Below are positions 34,225-45,432 of a stretch of 64,000 nucleotides of DNA, in pieces. How positions within the stretch are numbered: the first letter of the stretch is position 1; each line of letters begins with the position of its first letter. The DNA comes from a virus, in the IMG/VR virus record IMGVR_UViG_3300024999_000034, positions 116,839 to 180,838 of that record. One strand, given 5' to 3'. Both the position numbers and the translations under genes were made by a program. Under the pieces are notes generated by a model. The model was given only the letters and a program-made list of their open reading frames with translations. It was not told the origin of the DNA and ran no database searches.

Positions 34225-34608
34225 ATGTTGCAACAACAATTTAATCGGGGAGAGATATGGTTAGTTGATCTTCCATTTACAGGTAATTCAATTCAAGGTG
34301 GAGGCATTAGGCCAGTTGTGTTGTGTAGTAATAATATGGCAAATCTACATAGTCCAATTTTACATTATGTTCCTCTTACAACTCGTAAGAAACCATCCCT
34401 CCCTACTCACACAGAAATTGACACAGATAGCGGAATAATTAGAAAATCTACTGTACTATGTGAACAAGTTATGCCATTACCAAAAACGGCTTTCAAAGAA
34501 TGTATAGGATTCTGCAATGAAAAAGTAATGGATAAGGTTGATTTTTGTCTAGCTGTGCATTTAGGTTTGGTTAAACTTGTGAATAGAAATAATGTTGCTT
34601 ATGGTTAA
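34225..34608 (+). CDS. mazF: MazF/PemK-family endoribonuclease without an adjacent MazE
   Basis: RGEIWLVDL, GGIRPVV (catalytic Arg), PLTT (catalytic Thr), LPTH, VLCEQV, MDKVD. Confidence 0.9.
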   Translation: MLQQQFNRGEIWLVDLPFTGNSIQGGGIRPVVLCSNNMANLHSPILHYVPLTTRKKPSLPTHTEIDTDSGIIRKSTVLCEQVMPLPKTAFKECIGFCNEKVMDKVDFCLAVHLGLVKLVNRNNVAYG

Positions 34609-34637: not shown

Positions 34638-36242
34638 TTGGGTAAAAATAAAACTACAGAGCAGTATAGACAAGAGTTAGAAGAATATAATTTAAAATAT
34701 AATACAAAAATAAAGTTAAAGAATGGAGTTGAATATAATGGTGCTAATACTAAAATATTACATATTTGTTCGTGTGGTAAAGAGTGGTTAGTTTCACCTT
34801 CAGGCGTTATAAATAGTAGTTCGAAAACAAGTTGTGGTTTATGTTATACGTTTGCAGAAAAAGGAATCGATAATCTAGGGTATAATTTTTTAGAAAAATA
34901 TTGGGATTATAAAACAAATAACGAATTAGGAATTGATCCTTGGAAAATTAGTTGTAGTTCTGGAAAAGATGTTTATATATTTTGCCAAGAGAAAGATTAT
35001 CATGGAAGTTATAAAGTACGTTGTGTTGATTTTAGTAATGGAAGTAGGTGTGGTTATTGTCAAGGATACTATTTGGTTCATCCTTTAGATAGTTACGGAC
35101 AGTATTTAATTGATTCATTTGGAATAACCGCAATAGAACTGTATTGGGATTATAATATAAACACTGTTGATCCTTGGAAGATTACAAAACAATCAAATAA
35201 GATGGTATATATTAAATGTCAGAGGAAATATTATCATGGAAGTTATGGCATCAAGTGTAATGATTTTGTAAGAGGTGATAGATGCGGATATTGTGGAGGT
35301 AAAAAAGTACATCCATTGGACAGTCTAGGAACACTACATCCAAAATCACTAGAATTATGGTCAAATATAAACAAAAAATCACCATATGAATATATGTCTG
35401 GAAGCGATATGGAAGTTTGGTTTAAATGTGGCAACAAGAGACATGAAGATTACCAAAAAAGAATATATAATGCAGTAAATTGTAATTTTAGATGTCCAGT
35501 ATGTTCTCAAGAGCAAAAAGAATCTGTCATGGCCTCCACACTAAAGCAGGTATTAAGATATGAATACAGTCATACAAAATGGGAATATGACGCAGGATTT
35601 AAAATAGATAATAATATTAGTAGGTATGATATTTATGTTCCAGAATTGAATAACTTATTAATAGAATGCCAAAGTGAATATCACGATGATGAAAAACATA
35701 TTATTAACGATCAACTTAAAAAACAGTTTGCTATTGATAATGGATATGAATTTATAGCAATAGATAAAAGAGATTTTACAATAATAGAAATACTGAAATT
35801 TTTTATACCACATATAGATAAAATCCCTGATTATATACAAATAAATAAAAATACAACAAGAAGCTGGGACATAGAAAACGCTCAAAAACTACTAGATACT
35901 GGTCATACATACATAGATATAGCCAATATATTAGAAACGTCAGCTACAGCAATACGTGCAAGTGTAGGCGATAATGGTTTAATTAAACCAAATAATTATA
36001 TTTTCCAAGGTGCAAATATAGTTTGTTTATCTATGGATAATAATTTAATAAAAACATATAATTCATGTACTTCTGCTGCCAAAGATTTAGGAAAAGCAAA
36101 TGGAACAAGTATTAGTTCATGTTTGACTAAAAAGCCTCGTTCAGATACTGGGAAAATACGTGAAACAGCTTTTGGTTTTAAATGGATGTATCTAGTAGAT
36201 TATGAGAATATGGTCAAAGATCAAAATAATAAACCTCCGTAG
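34638..36242 (+). CDS. Homing-endonuclease-like protein: repeated zinc-ribbon modules, PD-(D/E)xK/Vsr-like nuclease domain, NUMOD1-like C-terminus
   Basis: Repeated W...C..K..H..Y......G.RC.YC units; RYDIYV...LIECQSEYH...DQLKK; IKTYNSCTSAAKDLG...TAFGFKWMY. Confidence 0.7.
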   Translation: MGKNKTTEQYRQELEEYNLKYNTKIKLKNGVEYNGANTKILHICSCGKEWLVSPSGVINSSSKTSCGLCYTFAEKGIDNLGYNFLEKYWDYKTNNELGIDPWKISCSSGKDVYIFCQEKDYHGSYKVRCVDFSNGSRCGYCQGYYLVHPLDSYGQYLIDSFGITAIELYWDYNINTVDPWKITKQSNKMVYIKCQRKYYHGSYGIKCNDFVRGDRCGYCGGKKVHPLDSLGTLHPKSLELWSNINKKSPYEYMSGSDMEVWFKCGNKRHEDYQKRIYNAVNCNFRCPVCSQEQKESVMASTLKQVLRYEYSHTKWEYDAGFKIDNNISRYDIYVPELNNLLIECQSEYHDDEKHIINDQLKKQFAIDNGYEFIAIDKRDFTIIEILKFFIPHIDKIPDYIQINKNTTRSWDIENAQKLLDTGHTYIDIANILETSATAIRASVGDNGLIKPNNYIFQGANIVCLSMDNNLIKTYNSCTSAAKDLGKANGTSISSCLTKKPRSDTGKIRETAFGFKWMYLVDYENMVKDQNNKPP

Positions 36243-36297: not shown

Positions 36298-36996
36298 ATG
36301 GATTTAATCACACTAGCAACAAAAACGACATACAAATTATTCAAAGTAGATGAAGTAATTGACTCATTTGATCAAAAACACTTTAATATTGTTAAGATAA
36401 TAGTAAAAAAATATAGGAATATGGACATTGAAGCAACAAAATCTCAAGTACAACAATTAGCCGAAAACGGAATTAGGAATTTTTGGAGTGAGTTATTTAA
36501 GTATATAATTGTATTATCAATTGCAAGTTATTTTAATATATTTACTCCAACTTTCTTTGTAATGAATGCTTTCTCTGTCCTCAGAGCATTGGCTGGTGGC
36601 GTACATATGTCTACCATAGGAAAATGCTTTGCAATGATGGTTCTATTCTTCTTATCACTAGGATATTTAATTAGTATATTACATATAAATACGTTAGTAT
36701 TAGTCGTAGGAATATCATTGGGGTCTATATGGAGCATATACATAGCTAAAAAATATTCTCCACAGGAAAGACCAGATAAATCAGATAAAGATTGTGATCA
36801 CGGCAATATAAAAAAGTATAAGACAATAAAGTTTATTAAATTCTCGTATATAATTAGTATGATATTAATATTGTTTACTCAAAAATACATAATTGGGATT
36901 AGTATATTTACAGGTGTTTTACTTGAGATGGTAACAATTACACCTAGAGGAACGAGATTTTTTCAATGGATAGATAGTAAGAAGGTGACACTATGA
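36298..36996 (+). CDS. agrB: AgrB-family autoinducing-peptide processing membrane protease
   Basis: LRALAGGVHMSTIGKC with His and Cys 7 apart (catalytic pair), YSPQERP, multiple TM helices, C-terminal TP. Confidence 0.9.
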   Translation: MDLITLATKTTYKLFKVDEVIDSFDQKHFNIVKIIVKKYRNMDIEATKSQVQQLAENGIRNFWSELFKYIIVLSIASYFNIFTPTFFVMNAFSVLRALAGGVHMSTIGKCFAMMVLFFLSLGYLISILHINTLVLVVGISLGSIWSIYIAKKYSPQERPDKSDKDCDHGNIKKYKTIKFIKFSYIISMILILFTQKYIIGISIFTGVLLEMVTITPRGTRFFQWIDSKKVTL

Positions 36997-37619
36997 TCGA
37001 AGTGGTAGTGTTTACATTCGTTTTTGCATGGTTCAATGGTTATAAGTGGAAGGTATTAAATTTGTTTAAGCATTGGAGCATATACCCCATTGCACTTACT
37101 TGTGTTGCTCATATTTATATTATATATCTTATGGTTCATGGTCAATATTGGTTTATGGAATATGCCAAATACATAAAAATTGTATCTATATTACTTTACT
37201 TAGGTTTGATTTGTAAATATAAGTTATTCGACATATCTATCTTTAAGAAAATTAATATTAAAGAGAACCCTATATTAACCCCTTTTACATCTCCTGTTTC
37301 TTTAGGTGTATTATGCATGGGTATAGGATCTGTCTTAAATATTATTGCTATGAAATTTAATGGTTCAAAAATGCCTGTTTTTGCGAGTGTAAGTTTTGGT
37401 ACAGGATATTCAAAAATAGATATGTTTGATAAAATGTTACAGTATAATGACTTTCATGTATTTGGAAACAGTGCTACACATTTGATATTTTTAACCGATT
37501 TCATAGATATTTTTACATCCATTATGAGTATCGGTGATGTATTAACTAGAATATTTGTTGTTTTAGTAATATATTACTCAATAAAAGTATGTAATCATAA
37601 AGTAATAAATAATATTTAG
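36993..37619 (+). CDS. DUF5317-like integral membrane protein, translationally coupled to agrB
   Basis: GSVLNIIAMKFNGSKMPV and LTDFIDIFTSIMSIGDVL motifs; ATGA overlap. Confidence 0.7.
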   Translation: MIEVVVFTFVFAWFNGYKWKVLNLFKHWSIYPIALTCVAHIYIIYLMVHGQYWFMEYAKYIKIVSILLYLGLICKYKLFDISIFKKINIKENPILTPFTSPVSLGVLCMGIGSVLNIIAMKFNGSKMPVFASVSFGTGYSKIDMFDKMLQYNDFHVFGNSATHLIFLTDFIDIFTSIMSIGDVLTRIFVVLVIYYSIKVCNHKVINNI

Positions 37620-37687: not shown

Positions 37688-38476
37688 ATGTTGGAAAATA
37701 TCATTTATTGTGCGTTGAGTTGTATTTTTATCACGATCCCAGAAGACATTTTTCTAATAATATTAACGCTAAGATTTATGGGAAGAAAAGAGATGTTGGA
37801 TTTATACAATATTAAAGAAAATTTAATTTCGATTTTAAAAATTGTTATCCCTTCGGCATTGTCTTTAAATCTTTTAAATTTTATAATAATGACACCAACT
37901 TCAATTAACAAAATAATATCTTATACTATGTTGTATTTGTTATTGGTATACATATTAAAAAAGAAATCTTTTATTGAATATCCAAAATTATATCAAAAAG
38001 CTTTTCTATATTTTATCTTAAGTATATTAGTAATAATAGCTATTGAAATTATTACCTTGCCAATTATATTTAAATTAGTTAATAAAACATATAAAGAAAT
38101 TCAGGTAAATTATTATTTAGTCATAATATGTTCTCTGTCTTCTAGAATTATAAATCTAATAATATTGTTCACTATTTTTATGAAGAAGAATAGTAAATTT
38201 CAAATAAGTATTGGTAATTATATATTTAATAATAAATTTTTCACAAGATTATTGATTGGTGTCACGGCAGGATTGGTTGTATCTGAGGCATACTTTGTCA
38301 AGTTAATTTTGTGGAATAACTTTTTAAATATCATTCCAACAATTTACGAACAATTGTTGTTAGTTATAAGTTTTACTTTTTTAGTACCAAGTTTGATAAT
38401 TTCAATAGTTTATTCTTGTATAAATTATTGTGTTATGATTATTAATAGTGAGAAGCAGACTTTCAGAAATGACTGA
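37688..38476 (+). CDS. Multi-pass membrane protein resembling an AgrC-type sensor domain with no kinase domain (copy 1)
   Basis: About 7 hydrophobic helices over 262 aa, no H-box or HATPase; sits between agrB and agrD. Confidence 0.6.
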   Translation: MLENIIYCALSCIFITIPEDIFLIILTLRFMGRKEMLDLYNIKENLISILKIVIPSALSLNLLNFIIMTPTSINKIISYTMLYLLLVYILKKKSFIEYPKLYQKAFLYFILSILVIIAIEIITLPIIFKLVNKTYKEIQVNYYLVIICSLSSRIINLIILFTIFMKKNSKFQISIGNYIFNNKFFTRLLIGVTAGLVVSEAYFVKLILWNNFLNIIPTIYEQLLLVISFTFLVPSLIISIVYSCINYCVMIINSEKQTFRND

Positions 38477-38515
38477 TCTGATTTTTCAAATACATTATAG
38501 AAGGAGGTGAAAATA

Positions 38516-38623
38516 ATGAAAAAGAATATCGTAATTGGTTTTGTAGCAATCGCTGCTTTTGCAGCAGTAATGTCTTCAATGGTAGTTTGGCATCAATCGG
38601 AAACTCCTAGTTGTATCGCGTAG
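38516..38623 (+). CDS. agrD: AgrD-like cyclic autoinducer propeptide, 35 aa (MKKNIVIGFVAIAAFAAVMSSMVVWHQSETPSCIA), absent from the ORF track
   Basis: AAGGAGGTG RBS; MKK plus hydrophobic leader; ring candidate SMVVW followed by HQSETP, matching the clostridial AgrD tail HQPEEP. Confidence 0.8.
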   Translation: MKKNIVIGFVAIAAFAAVMSSMVVWHQSETPSCIA

Positions 38624-38640
38624 TACATATCCATGATCTA

Positions 38641-38669
38641 AGGAGGGAGTATTTATACTCTCTCCTTTT
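38641..38669 (+). terminator. Intrinsic terminator after agrD
   Basis: AGGAGGGAGTAT/ATACTCTCTCCT hairpin followed by T run. Confidence 0.75.
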
Positions 38670-38697: not shown

Positions 38698-38727
38698 TTG
38701 ACATATTATCCACTGTTGTAGTATAGT
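38698..38727 (+). promoter_or_regulatory. sigmaA promoter for the HTH-MazF gene
   Basis: TTGACA-N18-TATAGT. Confidence 0.65.
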
Positions 38728-38779: not shown

Positions 38780-39601
38780 ATGATTAATATGTTTTTCAAT
38801 ACAAAAAAGAGAAATGAGACTGTTAAATCAAATGAGGCAAAGGATTTCAAGAAGCTTGCAAACTTAGTAAAAATAGCCGTTGGAAGCAATACTATTTCAG
38901 AGTTTGCAAACAGATGTGGTATTCCAAATTCAGCTAAAAGTATTGCTATGATTACTCAAGAAAAAATAACTACATACCCAGAAGTCGGTTTGCTTAAAAA
39001 AATTGCTTTGGGTTCTGAATTTCGAGTATCTTTTAATGATTTAAGGATTGCATGTGGTTATGATTTAAATGATACAGGGATTGATCTTAGAGGTGTAAAA
39101 GCTATGAGGGGTTGGATTGCCTTATGTAACTATGGGAACGTTTTAGACTCAGAACAATCTGGAATTAGGCCTTCCTTAATAATTTCCAATAATATTGGGA
39201 ATGAGAGAGGGACTATTTTGATGGCAATTCCTTTATCTAGTAAAATAATGAAAAATACTATGCCGACCCACGTCAGAATTGGCCCCAAAGACTGCGGATT
39301 GGCACAAGAGTCAGAAATTTTAGTTGAGCAGATGCGTGTAGTATCAAAAAGTCGTTTAATGATTGATGGGTTCATTCAACCAATTTGTGAATGTCCTGAA
39401 GACATACTCCGTAAGGTAGAAATAGCCATCATGAAGGAAACTGGTATGGTGAATACTAGAGCCAATGAATCTACAGTAGATAGATTCCTTGATAAACTTA
39501 ATGAATATGTAAATAAAGCAGAAGAAAGTCGTATCAATCACATTCAAAGCAATAATCGCAACACAATTCCACAACAACAGAGAGTAGCATCTTTTGCATG
39601 A
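38780..39601 (+). CDS. XRE-like HTH fused to a MazF/PemK domain
   Basis: N-terminal TISEFANRCGI...PEVGLLKKIA...DLRIACGY; C-terminal SEQSGIRPSLIISN...IPLSS...MPTHV...ILVEQMR. Confidence 0.85.
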   Translation: MINMFFNTKKRNETVKSNEAKDFKKLANLVKIAVGSNTISEFANRCGIPNSAKSIAMITQEKITTYPEVGLLKKIALGSEFRVSFNDLRIACGYDLNDTGIDLRGVKAMRGWIALCNYGNVLDSEQSGIRPSLIISNNIGNERGTILMAIPLSSKIMKNTMPTHVRIGPKDCGLAQESEILVEQMRVVSKSRLMIDGFIQPICECPEDILRKVEIAIMKETGMVNTRANESTVDRFLDKLNEYVNKAEESRINHIQSNNRNTIPQQQRVASFA

Positions 39602-39606
39602 ATATA

Positions 39607-39659
39607 ATATAAATGGTCATTATATGTCCTTCTTATTATAATATAATGACCATTTATAT
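39607..39659. repeat. Perfect 19-bp inverted repeat with a 15-nt loop between the HTH-MazF gene and receptor copy 2
   Basis: ATATAAATGGTCATTATAT ... ATATAATGACCATTTATAT. Confidence 0.85.
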
Positions 39660-39694: not shown

Positions 39695-40495
39695 ATGCAA
39701 GCAATTACAAATGCCATCCTAAACACCATATTCGTTGGCCTCCCTGAAGAAATGTTCATTGTAATAATCACATTATCACTTCTAAAAATCAATGATCTGC
39801 TAGACATCTTAATGTGGAAACGTAGTCTAACATGGATTATGCTCACAGCATTACCCGTAGCAATAATGGCAAATATCTTCAAATATATTATCATAGTACC
39901 AAAACAAAATTCTATATTGTCAATTATGTTATTTATGATAATTCTTATGCAATACATAGTCATCACCAATAGTTTCAAAGTAAATTTTTCACTAATATTT
40001 AAAACAGCAATCTACACAATCGCAAGCTTTGTAATTGTAGGAATCATTGAATATGCTTACTGTCCACTTCTATTAGCATTATTAGAAAAACCATATAGTT
40101 TTTTCAATGATAATGTAATGTACAATATCCTATGGGCTATTCCAATCAAAATTCTACACTTATGTATTGTTTCCTTAATTCTAGTGAGAAAAAATAGCAA
40201 AGTAAAAATTAATCTGTTTGACTCAATTATTAGAAATAAATTTATTGTTAGTGGTTTGTTGCTAATATTAGCAACCAGAGCATTAGTAGTTAATTATATC
40301 AATAAATTAGTGGAAAATAATAGCATCATGATTCAATTACAATTTATTGATGAATTAATTGCTATTGTTATAATCACATCAATTCCAGTAATATTTGTCA
40401 CATGGTTATTAATGGTAATCAATCATTATTTATGTAAAGAGAAAATGGCTCTGTTGGTTTGTGAAGGAGTTAGTGGAAATGATGACGGTGAGTGA
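39695..40495 (+). CDS. Multi-pass membrane protein, paralog of 37688..38476 (AgrC-like sensor without kinase, copy 2)
   Basis: Shared IF..(I/L)PE(D/E).F, IE....P, K.Y and KNSK..I....I..NKF motifs; similar length. Confidence 0.65.
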   Translation: MQAITNAILNTIFVGLPEEMFIVIITLSLLKINDLLDILMWKRSLTWIMLTALPVAIMANIFKYIIIVPKQNSILSIMLFMIILMQYIVITNSFKVNFSLIFKTAIYTIASFVIVGIIEYAYCPLLLALLEKPYSFFNDNVMYNILWAIPIKILHLCIVSLILVRKNSKVKINLFDSIIRNKFIVSGLLLILATRALVVNYINKLVENNSIMIQLQFIDELIAIVIITSIPVIFVTWLLMVINHYLCKEKMALLVCEGVSGNDDGE

Positions 40496-40677: not shown

Positions 40678-41031
40678 ATGAATTTAGAAACTAACAACGA
40701 GGAATATTTATGGGTAATCAAAGATCAAGATGGTAACTTTGCTCACAGAAACAGTATTGGCAAGTCTGGTAAGAATACCTGCATATACATATCTTTTAGA
40801 ACATTCTCTCCTGAGTGCAAGGGTTATATAAGTAAAGAAAGTGCTGAATTAGCCTTGCAAGAATTAAACAGAAGAAAATCTATCATGAGATTACCAAATA
40901 CATTCAATTTAGAATATAATATTTTAAGTAAGATGACTAAACTACATAGGGAATTTCAAGGAGAGAATATGGTCATATATGAAAAAACACATTCAAATAT
41001 ATTAAACTGTCCTGTATTAGAAGCAATCTAG
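40678..41031 (+). CDS. Hypothetical protein in its own transcription unit between the agr module and the yopQ/mrpR-like operon
   Basis: AAGGAG RBS, own promoter and terminator. Confidence 0.6.
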   Translation: MNLETNNEEYLWVIKDQDGNFAHRNSIGKSGKNTCIYISFRTFSPECKGYISKESAELALQELNRRKSIMRLPNTFNLEYNILSKMTKLHREFQGENMVIYEKTHSNILNCPVLEAI

Positions 41032-41062
41032 ATTATTGTGTGCTTGATAGAAGAAATATAAA

Positions 41063-41095
41063 GAGCCACACTGGTCGCATCGATAAGTGTGGCTC
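41063..41095 (+). terminator. Hairpin, probable terminator
   Basis: GAGCCACACT-N13-AGTGTGGCTC. Confidence 0.6.
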
Positions 41096-41117
41096 ATATA
41101 AAAATAAGTATAATTTC

Positions 41118-41146
41118 TTGACATTAGAGTAATAATTAGATATACT
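41118..41146 (+). promoter_or_regulatory. sigmaA promoter of the DndB-like / recombinase-fold / XRE operon
   Basis: TTGACA-N17-TATACT. Confidence 0.75.
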
Positions 41147-41166
41147 GATATTAATATTATTTTAAT

Positions 41167-42552
41167 GTGAAGGAGAGATATTTAATGCTTAAAGAAAAAT
41201 CAGTTGAGTTAATGCAAGAATTAAATCCATTGATCGTTAAATATTCTAGTAATGACAAGGTAAGAAAAATAATTTTAAATGAGTTTTCCAAAAGGAATAT
41301 GAGTGGTCGGTTGGCACTATCTATTTTAAACGAGAAAAGAGTATTATCAACATTAGATATCGATGAAGGGAAAGACTTGATATTATTATTTGTTTTTACT
41401 AGTGCAATGTACAATGCATTGACATTTAAAGAAGCAGATGATAAAGAACCTTTGGGAGAAATAGAAGAGTCATTTAAAATAACTCTCGAAAACTATTTTA
41501 CTGAAATTGAGATTGAAAGTCTATTAAACCACACATTTGAAAAAAAAGTTGATGAAAAAGATGAGGCTATTGTTTTTCCAAAAATGAATTTGATTGCTCC
41601 TGGATTTTATTCTGGGTATATGTCTGGAAAACATTTTGCTGAATTAGATGCTGGAAATGAATTCATCTATAATTTTAAAACCCAGCGTGATCCAATTATT
41701 AATGTATCTGGAATGAAAGAAATACATTTAAATAAGAAAAACGCAAAAGAAATTAGAGATGGTTTGCTTTCAGGCGATCAATTCCCAACTACTATAGTGG
41801 TAAATGTTCTTCGAGATGGATCAGACGAAATAATCTACAACGAAAAAAATGGAGACTTGACTATTGTTTCAGGAACTAAAAACCTTGTTGACGGAATGCA
41901 TAGAAAAGTGGGTAATAGCTTAGCCCTTGCTCTTAATCCAGATTTGCAATTTAATTGGTTGTTAGTTGTGATAAACTATAGCGAGGTTAGAGCGCAAAAA
42001 TATATGGTTGAAATTAACAAGCAACAAAAAATGAAGCAGGAACATGTTGATAACATGGATACTTCTAATCTTGGAAACATTGTTGTAGACAACATTAAAG
42101 ATATTGACAACGCTGAATTCTCTGGGCATATTAAAGACAGCGATAAAGAACTAGAACATGGTGGTATGGTAAAAAAATCAACATTAGCAACTAGTATAGA
42201 AGAGTGTTACAAGGATAAACTAACTAATAAAATTGAAGCAAAAAAGATAGCAAAGCATATTGCTAATGTTGTAGATTATGTTATAGGATTACACGCAGAA
42301 GAGTTTATAGAGCATTCTGAAGCTACTAAGAAAGAAAGTTATATCAATCATAAGAATATGTTTGCAGGATATGTTGCCTTATCTGAAAGATTATATGAAG
42401 TAAAGGATTGGGAAGATTTATTAGAAGAAATTCTTAATCAAATTGATTTTAGTGTTAAAAATTCTTTCTGGAAAGATATTGGAATATCAGATTCAGATAT
42501 GAAAAAGTCTACCAGAAACAATTTATATAAATTCTTTCAGAAATTAGTTTAA
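41167..42552 (+). CDS. DndB/ParB-like (DGQHR-type) protein, SPbeta YopQ-like
   Basis: FPTTIVVNV and LVDGMHR motif; position ahead of a recombinase-fold gene. Confidence 0.6.
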   Translation: MKERYLMLKEKSVELMQELNPLIVKYSSNDKVRKIILNEFSKRNMSGRLALSILNEKRVLSTLDIDEGKDLILLFVFTSAMYNALTFKEADDKEPLGEIEESFKITLENYFTEIEIESLLNHTFEKKVDEKDEAIVFPKMNLIAPGFYSGYMSGKHFAELDAGNEFIYNFKTQRDPIINVSGMKEIHLNKKNAKEIRDGLLSGDQFPTTIVVNVLRDGSDEIIYNEKNGDLTIVSGTKNLVDGMHRKVGNSLALALNPDLQFNWLLVVINYSEVRAQKYMVEINKQQKMKQEHVDNMDTSNLGNIVVDNIKDIDNAEFSGHIKDSDKELEHGGMVKKSTLATSIEECYKDKLTNKIEAKKIAKHIANVVDYVIGLHAEEFIEHSEATKKESYINHKNMFAGYVALSERLYEVKDWEDLLEEILNQIDFSVKNSFWKDIGISDSDMKKSTRNNLYKFFQKLV

Positions 42553-42586
42553 TTTTTCTAATATTTATTTATAAGGGGTGTTTTAA

Positions 42587-43633
42587 TTGGTTATTAATGA
42601 AGTTAATAATGGGTTGCAAAATGAAGAGGTGGTATTTGAGGTTGATTCAGAAGTGAAAAAGGAATTTCTAGAAAAACAATTAAAGTCAACTAGAAGTTTC
42701 TACACTTATGTTCTCAAAAGAGCAGATGAATTTGAATCACAACTTGGGAAAAAGATTTACGATTTTAATATTGAAGATCGCGATGAGATGTTGACTGTTC
42801 AGTTTAAGAATAAGAATAAATGGACGTTTCAATCTGCATTATCTCCTTTAAAAACTTATGTTGACTTCTGTATTTCTAAGAATTTAGTTAGACACAATGA
42901 AAACAGGTTTATGACTATTCTTCCGTCAGATTATGATGATTATGTTAGTGATCAAGCAAAAAACAGTTCTTATATCCCTTTATCAGAATCCAGAGAATTT
43001 CAAAAAAGATTAGCAAATGATCAAGATAAATTAATCATTGAATTATCTAGTTTAGGGGTTAGGGGAAGAACTGAAAAAGGCAATACACTTGAAGAGTTTG
43101 TAAATCTCAAAGTAAAAGATATTAAGTGGAAAGATAAGGAATTATGGCTCACTAAAAACAATGGGGAGCAAAGGTATATCAATGTTGATGATTATACTTT
43201 AGATTTACTAAAACGAGTTATTAACCAAACTTTCTATGTATCTAACAATGGATTAAAGACTAAAAAGAATGATTTAGGAGAATTCGAAAAGACTAATAGA
43301 GGCAGGGCTATAAGTCCGACTGAGTATGTTTTTAGAGTTCCAGGAAAGAATAGAAAAGGCAAAGTTGCTTATCAATTTTTTACTAGCAGAATTCAACGGA
43401 TGCAAAGTTGGTTAGAAGCTCCGTATTTAAATAGTTCTAATTTATATTTTTCTGCAATTTTAGATTATGCAAAAAACATGTTAGATGAGAAAAAAGCAAA
43501 AGGAGAAAAAGCAGAATTAACTAGAGAAGAATATATTCGAATTAATGAAAGATTTGAATTTGGTGAAAACGGAGAAAAATATGTGTTTAAGACTAGAGAT
43601 TTAGTTAAAATGCACTTTGGTAACGGAGAGTAA
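42587..43633 (+). CDS. Tyrosine-recombinase-fold protein with a degenerate active site, SPbeta YopR/MrpR-like master repressor candidate
   Basis: SAM-like N-domain (LSPLKTYVDFC), LGVRG...EFVNLKVKDI box I; the HxxR box is replaced by SNLYFS; no obvious C-terminal catalytic Tyr box. Confidence 0.65.
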   Translation: MVINEVNNGLQNEEVVFEVDSEVKKEFLEKQLKSTRSFYTYVLKRADEFESQLGKKIYDFNIEDRDEMLTVQFKNKNKWTFQSALSPLKTYVDFCISKNLVRHNENRFMTILPSDYDDYVSDQAKNSSYIPLSESREFQKRLANDQDKLIIELSSLGVRGRTEKGNTLEEFVNLKVKDIKWKDKELWLTKNNGEQRYINVDDYTLDLLKRVINQTFYVSNNGLKTKKNDLGEFEKTNRGRAISPTEYVFRVPGKNRKGKVAYQFFTSRIQRMQSWLEAPYLNSSNLYFSAILDYAKNMLDEKKAKGEKAELTREEYIRINERFEFGENGEKYVFKTRDLVKMHFGNGE

Positions 43634-43638
43634 ATATT

Positions 43639-44043
43639 ATGAAAAATACACTAGCTGAGATGTGGAAAAAATACAATTTACTTCTCTCTTTTAAAAATGA
43701 AATGAATAAGAGAGGATATCCTTCAAAGAGTTTGTATAGTATTGAAACACAAATGAGTGTTTTGATGCTTTTGATTGAAATTGAAAGTATAAATGTTTTA
43801 GAAGTCTTGCTAAAAGGAAAAACTTATTTCAGATTATTAAAGAAGATTAACAGGGGATTTGAGTATTTATATGAAATTGTAGAATCTCCAGAGGACTGGG
43901 TGTTGAACAAAATTGAAAATGATGTTGATGCGTGGATTGATTCAAATGTATTAATTTTTACATGCAAAAGTTCTACTGCTGTATTTAGTAAGATATCACG
44001 CAAAAGTGATGGAGCAAAATATATTGATGGAAAATTTCAATAA
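43639..44043 (+). CDS. Hypothetical protein
   Basis: 134-aa ORF in the same operon. Confidence 0.55.
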   Translation: MKNTLAEMWKKYNLLLSFKNEMNKRGYPSKSLYSIETQMSVLMLLIEIESINVLEVLLKGKTYFRLLKKINRGFEYLYEIVESPEDWVLNKIENDVDAWIDSNVLIFTCKSSTAVFSKISRKSDGAKYIDGKFQ

Positions 44044-44046
44044 GAG

Positions 44047-44463
44047 GTGTGCTTTATGAACGTAGGAGAAAAAATTTGTCTATACAAAGAAAGATTAAAT
44101 TTTAGAGATTATCAAGAATTTGGCAGGGCAGTTGGTATCAGTGGCAATTGGATAAATGAAACATCTAAGAAATCAGAGATTAAACAAATCAACGACTTAG
44201 GTTATTTAGTTAAATTGTGTGGATTTTTAGGAATTACGATAGATGAATTTTTAAGAGACGATGTAATTGAAACCGATGAATCAATTGAACCTAAAATTAT
44301 TGATGTAAATTCGGAAGATATTGGTATTTTGCTCAATAATATGATATTATTACTAGGAAGAGAGGGTATAAAAATAGATGGGGCATTAATGAATGATAAG
44401 AGTAAAGAAATTTGTATAGATAGTCTTGCGGTAGTAAGAACACTAGTCAAACAACATTTGTAA
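44047..44463 (+). CDS. XRE-family HTH transcriptional regulator
   Basis: YQEFGRAVGISGNWIN...LVKLCGFLGITIDEFL. Confidence 0.75.
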   Translation: MCFMNVGEKICLYKERLNFRDYQEFGRAVGISGNWINETSKKSEIKQINDLGYLVKLCGFLGITIDEFLRDDVIETDESIEPKIIDVNSEDIGILLNNMILLLGREGIKIDGALMNDKSKEICIDSLAVVRTLVKQHL

Positions 44464-44469
44464 TGGAGG

Positions 44470-45339
44470 TTGATAATTATGATTAGAAAGAATTACAGGT
44501 CGGTAGACACATATGAAATGGATGATATTGAAGTATACTCATTAGTTAAAAATGGCAGTCTTAGGGCGTTTCCTTCAGGCTTTTGGGAAGGCGTGATAGG
44601 TCTTCAAACTGCTAAGAAAATTCTAAAATATGTTTTTGAGAATCTTCTAAATTGGTCTATTGAGGATATAAAAGCAAAATCAACTAGAGAGATGTTTGAA
44701 GAATATAAATTAGTTGGAATGGTTAGCACTGCATTTGATGGTAGTATGTATATTGCTATTGGAGAAACTTATCCTGAACTTAAAGAATGGGCAGATGAAT
44801 TATATCATACAAATGAACATGCTGATTTTGTCTATAGAAAATATTCAGATGATGAATTAATTAGTATTCTCCAAGAAAAAGCAAAAGAGTTAAAGAGAAT
44901 TCCAAAAGGTGTTGATATGAAAACGCCTAGTAGTGGAATTTATAATCGGAGATTTGGTTCATGGGAAAAATCTTTAATGAAAGCAGGTATAATTGAAGAT
45001 ATTTATAAAAATGTTGATTTTGGAAAGAATTCTAAGGAATCTGTCATATCAAATTTAAAAGAATTATTTGCAAGCAAAGAAAGAGTATTGGACAAGAAAG
45101 AAATACTTGCTATTTATCCAGAAGGATTGATTAAAGAATACTTTGGAACTTATAATAATCTTGAAAAAGTTATTGTAGGTGAGTATACTAAAAGGGATCT
45201 TATCAAAATATTAAAAAAGAAGAAAGAAAAATTAGGCAGAACTCCAAGTAATAAAGATATGAAGTTTCCAATGGCTATTGTGTTCATAGATAAATTTGGG
45301 AGCTGGCAGGAGGCGATTGACAAATTGGAGAAAACTTAA
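44470..45339 (+). CDS. DUF4046-like domain plus homing-endonuclease-associated repeats
   Basis: FPSGFW...LNWSIEDI; YSDDELISILQEKAKELKRIP...RRFGSW and ...LGRTPS...KFGSW repeats. Confidence 0.6.
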   Translation: MIIMIRKNYRSVDTYEMDDIEVYSLVKNGSLRAFPSGFWEGVIGLQTAKKILKYVFENLLNWSIEDIKAKSTREMFEEYKLVGMVSTAFDGSMYIAIGETYPELKEWADELYHTNEHADFVYRKYSDDELISILQEKAKELKRIPKGVDMKTPSSGIYNRRFGSWEKSLMKAGIIEDIYKNVDFGKNSKESVISNLKELFASKERVLDKKEILAIYPEGLIKEYFGTYNNLEKVIVGEYTKRDLIKILKKKKEKLGRTPSNKDMKFPMAIVFIDKFGSWQEAIDKLEKT

Positions 45340-45343
45340 TTGT

Positions 45344-45382
45344 TTTACAATGGATATTGAGGTATGTTATAATATCTCAATA
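45344..45382 (+). promoter_or_regulatory. sigmaA promoter with an inverted repeat flanking the -10
   Basis: TTTACA-N18-TATAAT; ATTGAGGTAT...ATATCTCAAT. Confidence 0.55.
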
Positions 45383-45432
45383 ATACATAATCTAGGATAT
45401 TATTAAAATATAATTAGAAAGCGAGTTAAGCA

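Follow-up and report, generated by a model that had tools for sequence, protein, structure and literature searches.

We analysed a window of 64,000 nt of phage DNA, which is the last 64 kb (positions 116,839 to 180,838) of IMG/VR virus record IMGVR_UViG_3300024999_000034, a record of 180,838 bp with 29% G+C and an estimated completeness of 85%. One gene of this window, here called the fusion (38789..39601, plus strand), encodes an XRE-type helix-turn-helix (HTH) domain, a MazF/PemK RNase domain and a C-terminal tail in a single protein. MazF toxins are known as two-gene toxin-antitoxin modules; this MazF has no antitoxin gene beside it and lies in an Agr-type peptide-signalling cassette directly upstream of a DndB/MrpR-like repressor operon. 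The catalytic residues of MazF and the place of the gene in its cassette were conserved among relatives, and the MazF cut site UACAUA was frequent on the sense strand of the cassettes and absent from the repressor operons. We judge the chances to be about even that the fusion is the output of the cassette and acts there as a catalytically active MazF, tethered to DNA or binding it.

An uninterrupted reading frame was confirmed at 38780..39601 on the plus strand, the strand that carries all of the sizeable genes of the window. Homologs begin with 'MF', locus L001 has no upstream ATG, and a GGGTGG Shine-Dalgarno sequence lies 9 nt before 38789; translation therefore probably starts at the second ATG, the conserved 38789, giving a protein of 270 aa. 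Residue numbers are counted from 38780. An internal start at Met108, which is preceded by GAGGTG, was rejected because this Met is not conserved among homologs. The first-pass annotation had placed an XRE-like HTH, a MazF/PemK domain and a tail in one reading frame, and profile and structure searches bore out this architecture. Pfam PemK_toxin (PF02452) matched residues 110-218 with 75.4 bits against a cut-off of 23.1, within a domain that spans residues ~106-225 (39095..39454, plus strand). When a profile of 29 homologs was compared with the PDB, B. subtilis YdcE/EndoA, B. anthracis MoxT and S. aureus MazF were matched at E ~1e-23. Foldseek gave a target template-modelling (TM) score of 0.91 to 1NE8/4MDX, the SH3-like barrel of MazF/Kid/CcdB, and VIA superpositions on MazF covered 113 residues with a root-mean-square deviation (rmsd) of 1.7 (Z 16.1) and 115 residues with one of 1.9 (Z 15.8). 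When B. subtilis MazF was aligned by HMMER, GGIRP stood opposite its GGVRP, pairing Arg130 (codon 39167-39169) with Arg25, and the first Ser of PLSS, Ser153 (codon 39236-39238), was paired with Thr48. Mutation of Arg25 or Thr48 of MazF abolishes toxicity (PMC8634880). The earlier claim of a retained catalytic Arg (GIRP) with Ser (PLSS) at the catalytic Thr position thus agrees with the alignment. The same holds for the claim that no antitoxin gene is adjacent: the upstream neighbour is agrD and the downstream neighbour a membrane protein gene, and no PF04014 (AbrB-type) MazE was found in the whole 180,838-bp record, ribbon-helix-helix antitoxins not having been searched for. The fusion shares its fold, ~30-33% identity and the equivalents of the catalytic Arg, Thr/Ser, His59, Ser73, Glu78, Gln79 and Lys85 with MazF of B. 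subtilis (EndoA/NdoA/YdcE), B. anthracis (MoxT) and S. aureus (1NE8, 4MDX, 4HKE, 4MZM). It differs from them in ~105 extra N-terminal residues (the HTH) and ~50 extra C-terminal residues (the tail), in Asp for Gly18, in lacking an upstream mazE, and in being phage-borne in a peptide-signalling cassette rather than part of a two-gene operon.

The N-terminal domain (residues ~20-95; 38837..39064, plus strand) was recognised as a five-helix Cro/C1 (XRE)-type HTH by its structure and its remote profile relatives. In the AlphaFold model of the full-length protein, helices at 23-34, 39-45, 49-59, 69-78 and 85-92 had a predicted local distance difference test score (pLDDT) of 78-89, the mean of the whole model being 76. 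In the structural search, ~40 solved Cro/C1-type domains were aligned with residues ~20-95 at Z 6.5-8.9, directly after the MazF/CcdB matches; they included 2ofy, C.AhdI, SinR, CapH, P22 c2, ImmR, 434 repressor, ComR, PrgX, HigA and HipB, and examples of the superpositions are those on 2ofy (Z 8.9, rmsd 3.6, 74 residues aligned) and C.AhdI (Z 8.6, rmsd 2.3, 64 residues aligned). A profile of the domain searched against 1.8 billion representatives retrieved 102 remote relatives, and among 56 of these that were scanned, HTH_3 was present in 28, HTH_26 in 19 and PemK in 7. No HTH family was found for residues 1-105 in Pfam, NCBIfam or PDB sequence searches, relaxed thresholds included. No fusion member matched the HTH_3 (XRE) clan of Pfam up to E = 10, and the sole HTH-type Pfam match was that of one member to HTH_17, outside this clan, at E 0.17. 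When the domain was folded alone (9 sequences), the pLDDT was 57 and a Foldseek search with that model returned nothing. The isolated-domain model being poor, the assignment was made from the full-length model and the remote relatives, and the 'XRE-like HTH' of the first-pass annotation was right at the level of fold and remote homology only. The domain has a net charge of about +5 (hand count, residues 20-95), and it probably binds DNA.

The C-terminal extension (residues 226-273; 39455..39598, plus strand) begins with a conserved amphipathic acidic helix (E230, F236, L237, K239, E242), modelled confidently over residues 230-260, and continues as a low-complexity polar linker to a hydrophobic end, ...RVASFA. 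A similar basic-then-hydrophobic ending was present in most fusion relatives, while the short phage MazF proteins end in ...AYG or ...AYA. Searches of Pfam and the PDB gave no relative of the tail, and it does not resemble MazE. Its end is possibly a proteolysis tag or a docking peptide; a role of the tail as an antitoxin in cis is only an idea, given that it does not resemble MazE.

Close homologs of the fusion numbered 40, with identities of 55-100% and lengths of 256-272 aa in all except one truncated copy. A broader profile collected 107 clusters of the same architecture, mostly 250-300 aa long and almost all metagenomic. The sole name given to members of the family by any source was 'mRNA interferase MazF'. 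No relative of the fusion was found in 185,579 species genomes, and there was no megablast match in the GenBank phage collection, where at the protein level only the MazF part matched other phages. A 404-aa relative, P0142 (L021:7001-8215), carries two PemK stretches in one chain and has no recognisable AgrB or agr context; its sequence may represent a tandem 'single-chain dimer' variant. Across 108 aligned fusion clusters (identity 25-100%), the catalytic Arg was kept in 101 and Ser or Thr at the hydroxyl position in all 108, and the equivalents of His59, Ser73, Glu78 and Lys85 were each kept in 104-107. The Glu20 equivalent was hydrophobic in 65 of the 108, and Gly18 was replaced by Asp. Such conservation suggests an active site that still works but has a changed substrate loop, and not a decayed toxin. 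It also bears on the possibility that the protein is a transcription factor only, in which the MazF fold would serve for dimerisation or for binding a ligand (a peptide, RNA, a MazE-like protein or the membrane protein's tail) and catalysis would be irrelevant. We regard this as unlikely. The HTH is the best-conserved part of the fusion, at 70-73% identity between loci, the structural matches include the RRNPP regulators PrgX and ComR, which carry a peptide-binding domain beside an XRE HTH, and one subclade has His for the catalytic Arg and has lost the Glu20 equivalent; all of this would suit such a factor. The near-invariance of the Arg, of the hydroxyl residue and of the RNA-contacting Ser73, Glu78 and Lys85 is, however, hard to explain for a mere scaffold, MazF cut sites abound on the cassette's sense strand, and the HTH does not co-vary with the class of the peptide, so that it is not a specific peptide sensor.

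The fusion was found within a peptide-signalling module, as the first-pass annotation had proposed. In the window, a short mazF, a homing endonuclease gene, agrB, a DUF5317 gene, a promoter, the membrane protein gene TM1, agrD and a terminator are followed by a promoter, the fusion, a second membrane protein gene TM2, orf117, a further promoter and the DndB-like and MrpR-like genes. AgrB (36298..36996), the peptide-processing membrane protease, matched PF04647 with 85.9 bits. The DUF5317 membrane protein gene (36993..37619) is a constant member of the cassette and is translationally coupled to agrB here; its product might, by analogy with MroQ of S. aureus, be a second processing or export component. 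The repressor operon (41167..43633) is immediately downstream of the cassette and encodes a DndB-like (YopQ-like) protein (40.3 bits) and an MrpR-like (YopR-like) protein (MrpR_N_CB, 50.4 bits). All of these genes are on the plus strand. Eight related contigs of 20-178 kb kept the gene order, with TM2, orf117 and the endonuclease as optional members. The order membrane protein, AgrD, fusion was retained in 15 further cassettes with enough flank, at identities of 27-86%, and AgrB and DUF5317 were close by in the longer of these. Even where the fusions were 25-42% identical (L009-L014, L017), they still followed a homologous membrane protein of ~265-280 aa and an AgrD-like gene of 30-41 aa. The gene agrB was on the other side of the fusion in L011, L019 and L020, of which L019 and L020 still lay directly upstream of DndB/MrpR; in total, nine further loci had DndB/MrpR immediately downstream, agrB-relocated ones included. 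Because the order was kept in 15 further cassettes down to 27% identity, a functional link is favoured over a chance insertion.

In every locus compared, the fusion stands behind a terminator and has its own strong promoter. The G+C-rich terminator hairpin of the TM1-agrD transcript (38640..38667, plus strand) sits between agrD and this promoter, and a hairpin was at the same place in all loci; the promoter-like site (38698..38727, plus strand), TTGACA-18-TATAGT with 11 of 12 matches, was conserved in position in all related loci. The monocistronic layout with its own promoter and terminator, and the lack of a separate antitoxin, would suit a single-chain toxin-antitoxin or an abortive-infection or superinfection-exclusion gene, in which the HTH, the acidic helix or both would restrain MazF in cis and control their own promoter, a trigger such as proteolysis or a rival phage would free the RNase, and the adjacency of agrD would have no signalling meaning. 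Fused toxin-antitoxins that act in defence exist, CapRel being an example. The tail helix is acidic and confidently modelled, and PHROGs lists the MazF domain in its moron/host-takeover category as a 'MazF-like growth inhibitor'. Still, we hold both the cis-restrained toxin and its release without signalling to be distinctly improbable: in all loci with enough flank (15 further cassettes, those with rearranged gene order included) the fusion was beside a membrane protein and AgrD, the double-PemK variant in L021 standing apart, the tail is not MazE-like, and XRE proteins were not among the usual antitoxin partners of MazF in a 2009 survey (PMC2701414). Nor was a two-gene XRE-plus-MazF ancestor found among the HTH-only matches that were checked. 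The nearest of these, the 148-aa proteins P0041 and P0043 (L016, L017), are artefacts, namely a fusion broken by a frameshift and a chimeric assembly in which part of the membrane gene upstream occurs again; another, P0046, is a lone bacterial HTH.

MazF of B. subtilis, Listeria and S. aureus cuts at U^ACAUA. In ten loci, the sense strand of the cassettes contained 86 UACAUA and the repressor operons none. When eight loci were pooled, TACATA occurred 69 times in 34 kb of cassette sense strand and not once in 18.4 kb of DndB/MrpR operons, which made it the most skewed of 1,082 hexamers (binomial 1e-13), although the loci share ancestry and pooled statistics therefore overstate independence. The two more divergent loci had 8 and 9 sites in the cassette and 0 and 0 in the operon. 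Of 60 permutations of the same composition, TACATA ranked first in the cassette, and no other was missing from the operon. On the antisense strand, the control, it was present 27 times in the cassette and 10 times in the operon; this strand asymmetry speaks for a signal at the level of RNA rather than DNA. Coding regions held 59 sites against 18.7 expected from codon shuffles, spread over all three frames. TACTTA, the secondary motif of S. aureus MazF, occurred 31 times in the cassette and 0 times in the operon. One UACAUA (38624..38629, plus strand), the predicted cut site, directly follows the agrD stop and precedes the terminator hairpin; a site 0-7 nt after the agrD stop codon and ahead of the hairpin was kept in 13 of 16 loci. 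The message of the fusion itself usually has one UACAUA, in the codons for Thr-Thr-Tyr of the HTH. In this genome the longest gap without TAC[AT]TA on the sense strand of its plus-strand part, 40943-45384 (4.4 kb), spans the DndB-like and MrpR-like genes, orf134, the XRE-like orf138 and an HNH_repeat/DUF4046 gene. After correction, the 5-kb bin with the most UACAUA did not reach significance. Since the single-genome tests were not significant, the case for the sites is made by repetition across loci. Of the modes put forward in the first-pass annotation (a repressor dimerised through the MazF fold, a tethered RNase and a MazE sponge), none stood out from the others. Taken with the conserved dyad, the pattern favours a working RNase over a purely structural MazF fold.

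Transcripts of phi3T and SPbeta are likewise enriched in MazF sites, and host MazF promotes lysogeny there (PMC10769878; bioRxiv 10.1101/2023.04.27.537455); the premise of the first-pass annotation that host MazF is an effector in arbitrium decisions is thus present in the literature. The phage phi3T tunes host MazEF through the MazE- or MazF-binding proteins phi3T_93, AimX and YosL (PMC10769878). The fusion could by the same token manipulate host MazEF, as a MazF look-alike that soaks up host MazE and so frees host MazF, or that forms dead heterodimers with host MazF; cutting at UACAUA would then be done by the host enzyme. A Bacillota MazF of the host would account for the site pattern no less well than one of the phage, and the closest solved relatives of the domain are host-type MazF proteins at ~31-33% identity. 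A decoy, however, has no obvious need for a catalytic dyad that is kept in 94-100% of members, the HTH would be left unexplained, and the species genomes gave no relative that would point to a host or its MazE. We consider such manipulation very unlikely.

The AgrD-like gene (38516..38623, plus strand) encodes an autoinducing-peptide precursor of 35 aa, or of 38 aa from a GTG at 38507, and scored 19.1 bits against TIGR04223 (cut-off 19). In all of the 14 AgrD versions compared, the tail was (H/N/Y)QPxxP, and the residue five positions ahead of it was Ser or Cys. Here the tail is HQSETP, Ser stands five residues before, and the predicted ring is SMVVW; the predicted rings of relatives were of Ser or Cys type (SAIIW, STIIW, CFAAW, CLAAW and others). 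By sequence, Ser at this position would imply an O-lactone rather than a thiolactone. TM1 (37688..38476, plus strand), always upstream of agrD and the fusion, is a polytopic membrane protein with ~7 hydrophobic segments by eye. TM2 (39695..40495, plus strand), present in 5 of 9 close loci, is a paralog with 24% identity to it. Neither had a match in Pfam, NCBIfam or the PDB. Relatives of at least 490 aa were absent, the 400-460 aa range in which AgrC kinases lie not having been searched separately. An 'AgrC-like' identity was rejected, as hhalign against the AgrC of phiCDHM1 gave a probability of 0.2 and no known family was matched. The earlier description of the flanking genes as 'receptors' therefore found no support in similarity to AgrC or any known family, and they would count as receptors only by where they lie and by how they co-vary with the class of peptide. 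When loci with Ser-type peptides were set against those with Cys-type ones, the identity of TM1 fell from 58% to 34%, whereas that of the fusion HTH was 73% versus 70%, in a comparison of few loci that are related to one another. Because TM1 co-varies with the peptide class and the HTH does not, TM1 is the best candidate for a peptide-specific partner or receptor, and the fusion appears to behave as a generic downstream component of the cassette. The sole conserved soluble segment of the TM1/TM2 family is a C-terminal motif, (S/K)EK...Q(T/S)(Y/F)(E/R)N, kept down to 23% identity; a cytoplasmic partner might dock there.

Between the fusion and TM2 lies an inverted repeat or hairpin (39607..39659, plus strand; 19-nt arms), which had been put forward as an operator. 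The arms of this TM2-linked repeat (16-19 bp) read ...ATGGTCATTATA and TATAATGACCAT..., and the right arm holds TATAAT, which could be the -10 box of TM2. It has 16 conserved pairs, one compensatory change, a loop of 15-38 nt and no U-tract. A role as operator of the fusion was not borne out and was rejected as unlikely, since the repeat is present only where TM2 is and its loop length varies; it looks like an element tied to TM2. No consensus structure was found by RNAalifold in the 5' untranslated region of the fusion, nor were inverted repeats picked there by eye supported, and the TGACAT repeats upstream of the short mazF and the -35 boxes were not distinctive. At the head of the module, the short MazF/PemK gene (34225..34608, plus strand; 127 aa) also has no antitoxin gene. 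Its product keeps GGIRP and PLTT, and its C-terminus (...AYG/...AYA) resembles that of the fusion. Of the 9 close loci, 8 have a counterpart (the upstream flank is missing from L007), as does L019; no counterpart appeared within 7 kb in L020, or in L011, which is a short cassette. A 534-aa homing-endonuclease-like gene (34638-36242) with NUMOD1, treble-clef zinc fingers and an REase-like part lies between the short mazF and agrB here and in L003 and L004, and was absent from that place in L001, L002, L006 and L008.

We propose that the fusion would be the cytoplasmic output of a kinase-less Agr-type cassette in large SPbeta-like phages, the uncultivated hosts of which are probably clostridial. 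Its MazF domain would dimerise as MazF does and still cut RNA, most likely at UACAUA-like sites, and the tail may regulate the protein or mark it for proteolysis. Once active, the RNase would cleave messages of the phage itself that are rich in sites, perhaps alongside the short phage MazF and whatever MazF the host has. The TM1-agrD message would be one of them, cut just upstream of its protective terminator hairpin, and the site-free DndB/MrpR repressor operon would be spared. Signal production would thereby be subject to feedback, and the decision would be tilted toward lysogeny, as it is for phi3T by host MazF. A number of observations weigh against this proposal, the shared ancestry of the pooled loci being one of them. 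In 7 of the 108 clusters, all of one subclade, His replaces the catalytic Arg and Ser-Glu-Gln has become Ser-Val-Thr, so catalysis may be dispensable there. The specificity may be other than UACAUA, because the Glu20 equivalent is often hydrophobic and Gly18 is Asp. The site-free stretch 40943-45384, judged within this genome only, is unremarkable (P ~0.3-0.5), and from sequence the site pattern fits the fusion, the short phage MazF and a host MazF equally. The operator search yielded no convincing conserved operator, and the promoter-proximal repeats were AT-rich and unconvincing. As for how a toxin without an antitoxin stays harmless, restraint could come from a membrane protein, from the protein's own tail or HTH, from rapid turnover, or from a low, non-lethal activity as in B. 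subtilis.

A more specific form of the proposal gives TM1 two functions, those of a cyclic-peptide sensor and a membrane-bound antitoxin. The conserved cytoplasmic C-terminal motif would hold the fusion inactive at the membrane, the peptide would free HTH-MazF, the freed protein would bind phage DNA and cut UACAUA messages, and the repressor operon would escape, leading to lysogeny. We find this sequence of events doubtful as a whole. If it were true, a peptide-gated toxin would replace a two-component system, and a second, mechanistically different form of phage communication would stand beside arbitrium.

Compared with known systems, the domains and the logic are familiar, and the combination and the setting are new; the searchable literature yielded no account of an XRE domain fused to MazF, nor of an agr cassette that lacks a kinase and has MazF as its output. 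As in arbitrium-MazEF of phi3T and SPbeta, a peptide module lies directly upstream of a DndB(YopQ)/MrpR(YopR)-like operon and the phage messages are rich in MazF sites; arbitrium ties the MazF RNase to the lysis-lysogeny decision, a link that the cassette would share. Unlike arbitrium, the signal would be a cyclic AgrD peptide processed by AgrB and not the linear AimP, and the phage itself carries two MazF genes, one of them joined to an HTH, with no MazE-like AimX or YosL recognised. Known Agr systems sense cyclic peptides outside the cell. The cassette resembles those of staphylococci and clostridia and agrBDC of phiCDHM1 in its AgrB, its AgrD-like precursor, the clostridial HQPxxP tail and the Ser/Cys ring position. 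It differs in that no histidine kinase and no LytTR is present, neither LytTR nor HATPase_c_5 (the AgrC-type ATPase) having been found in the 85% complete record; HTH-MazF takes the place of the response regulator, and the membrane protein has no detectable similarity to AgrC of phiCDHM1. With RRNPP regulators (PrgX, ComR, PlcR), the fusion shares an N-terminal XRE HTH, a second domain and a peptide-signalling context, but its second domain is a MazF barrel and not a TPR array, and its HTH does not follow the peptide class. In Myxococcus xanthus, MazF-mx is an orphan MazF that has the transcription factor MrpC as its antitoxin in a developmental decision. The phage protein likewise joins a MazF that lacks mazE to a domain of DNA-binding type, but as a single polypeptide with an XRE HTH; M. 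xanthus has two separate proteins and a CRP-family regulator.

These findings show that a phage family carries its own MazF, HTH-fused and antitoxin-less, in a kinase-less Agr-type cassette at the position that arbitrium occupies in SPbeta. Should the RNase prove active and peptide-controlled, the cassette would be a second phage-to-phage communication system with a different signal chemistry, in which a membrane signal would reach gene expression through an RNase and a repressor instead of phosphorylation. It would also support a general rule that temperate phages of Bacillota put MazF sites in their lytic and signalling messages and not in the repressor operon.

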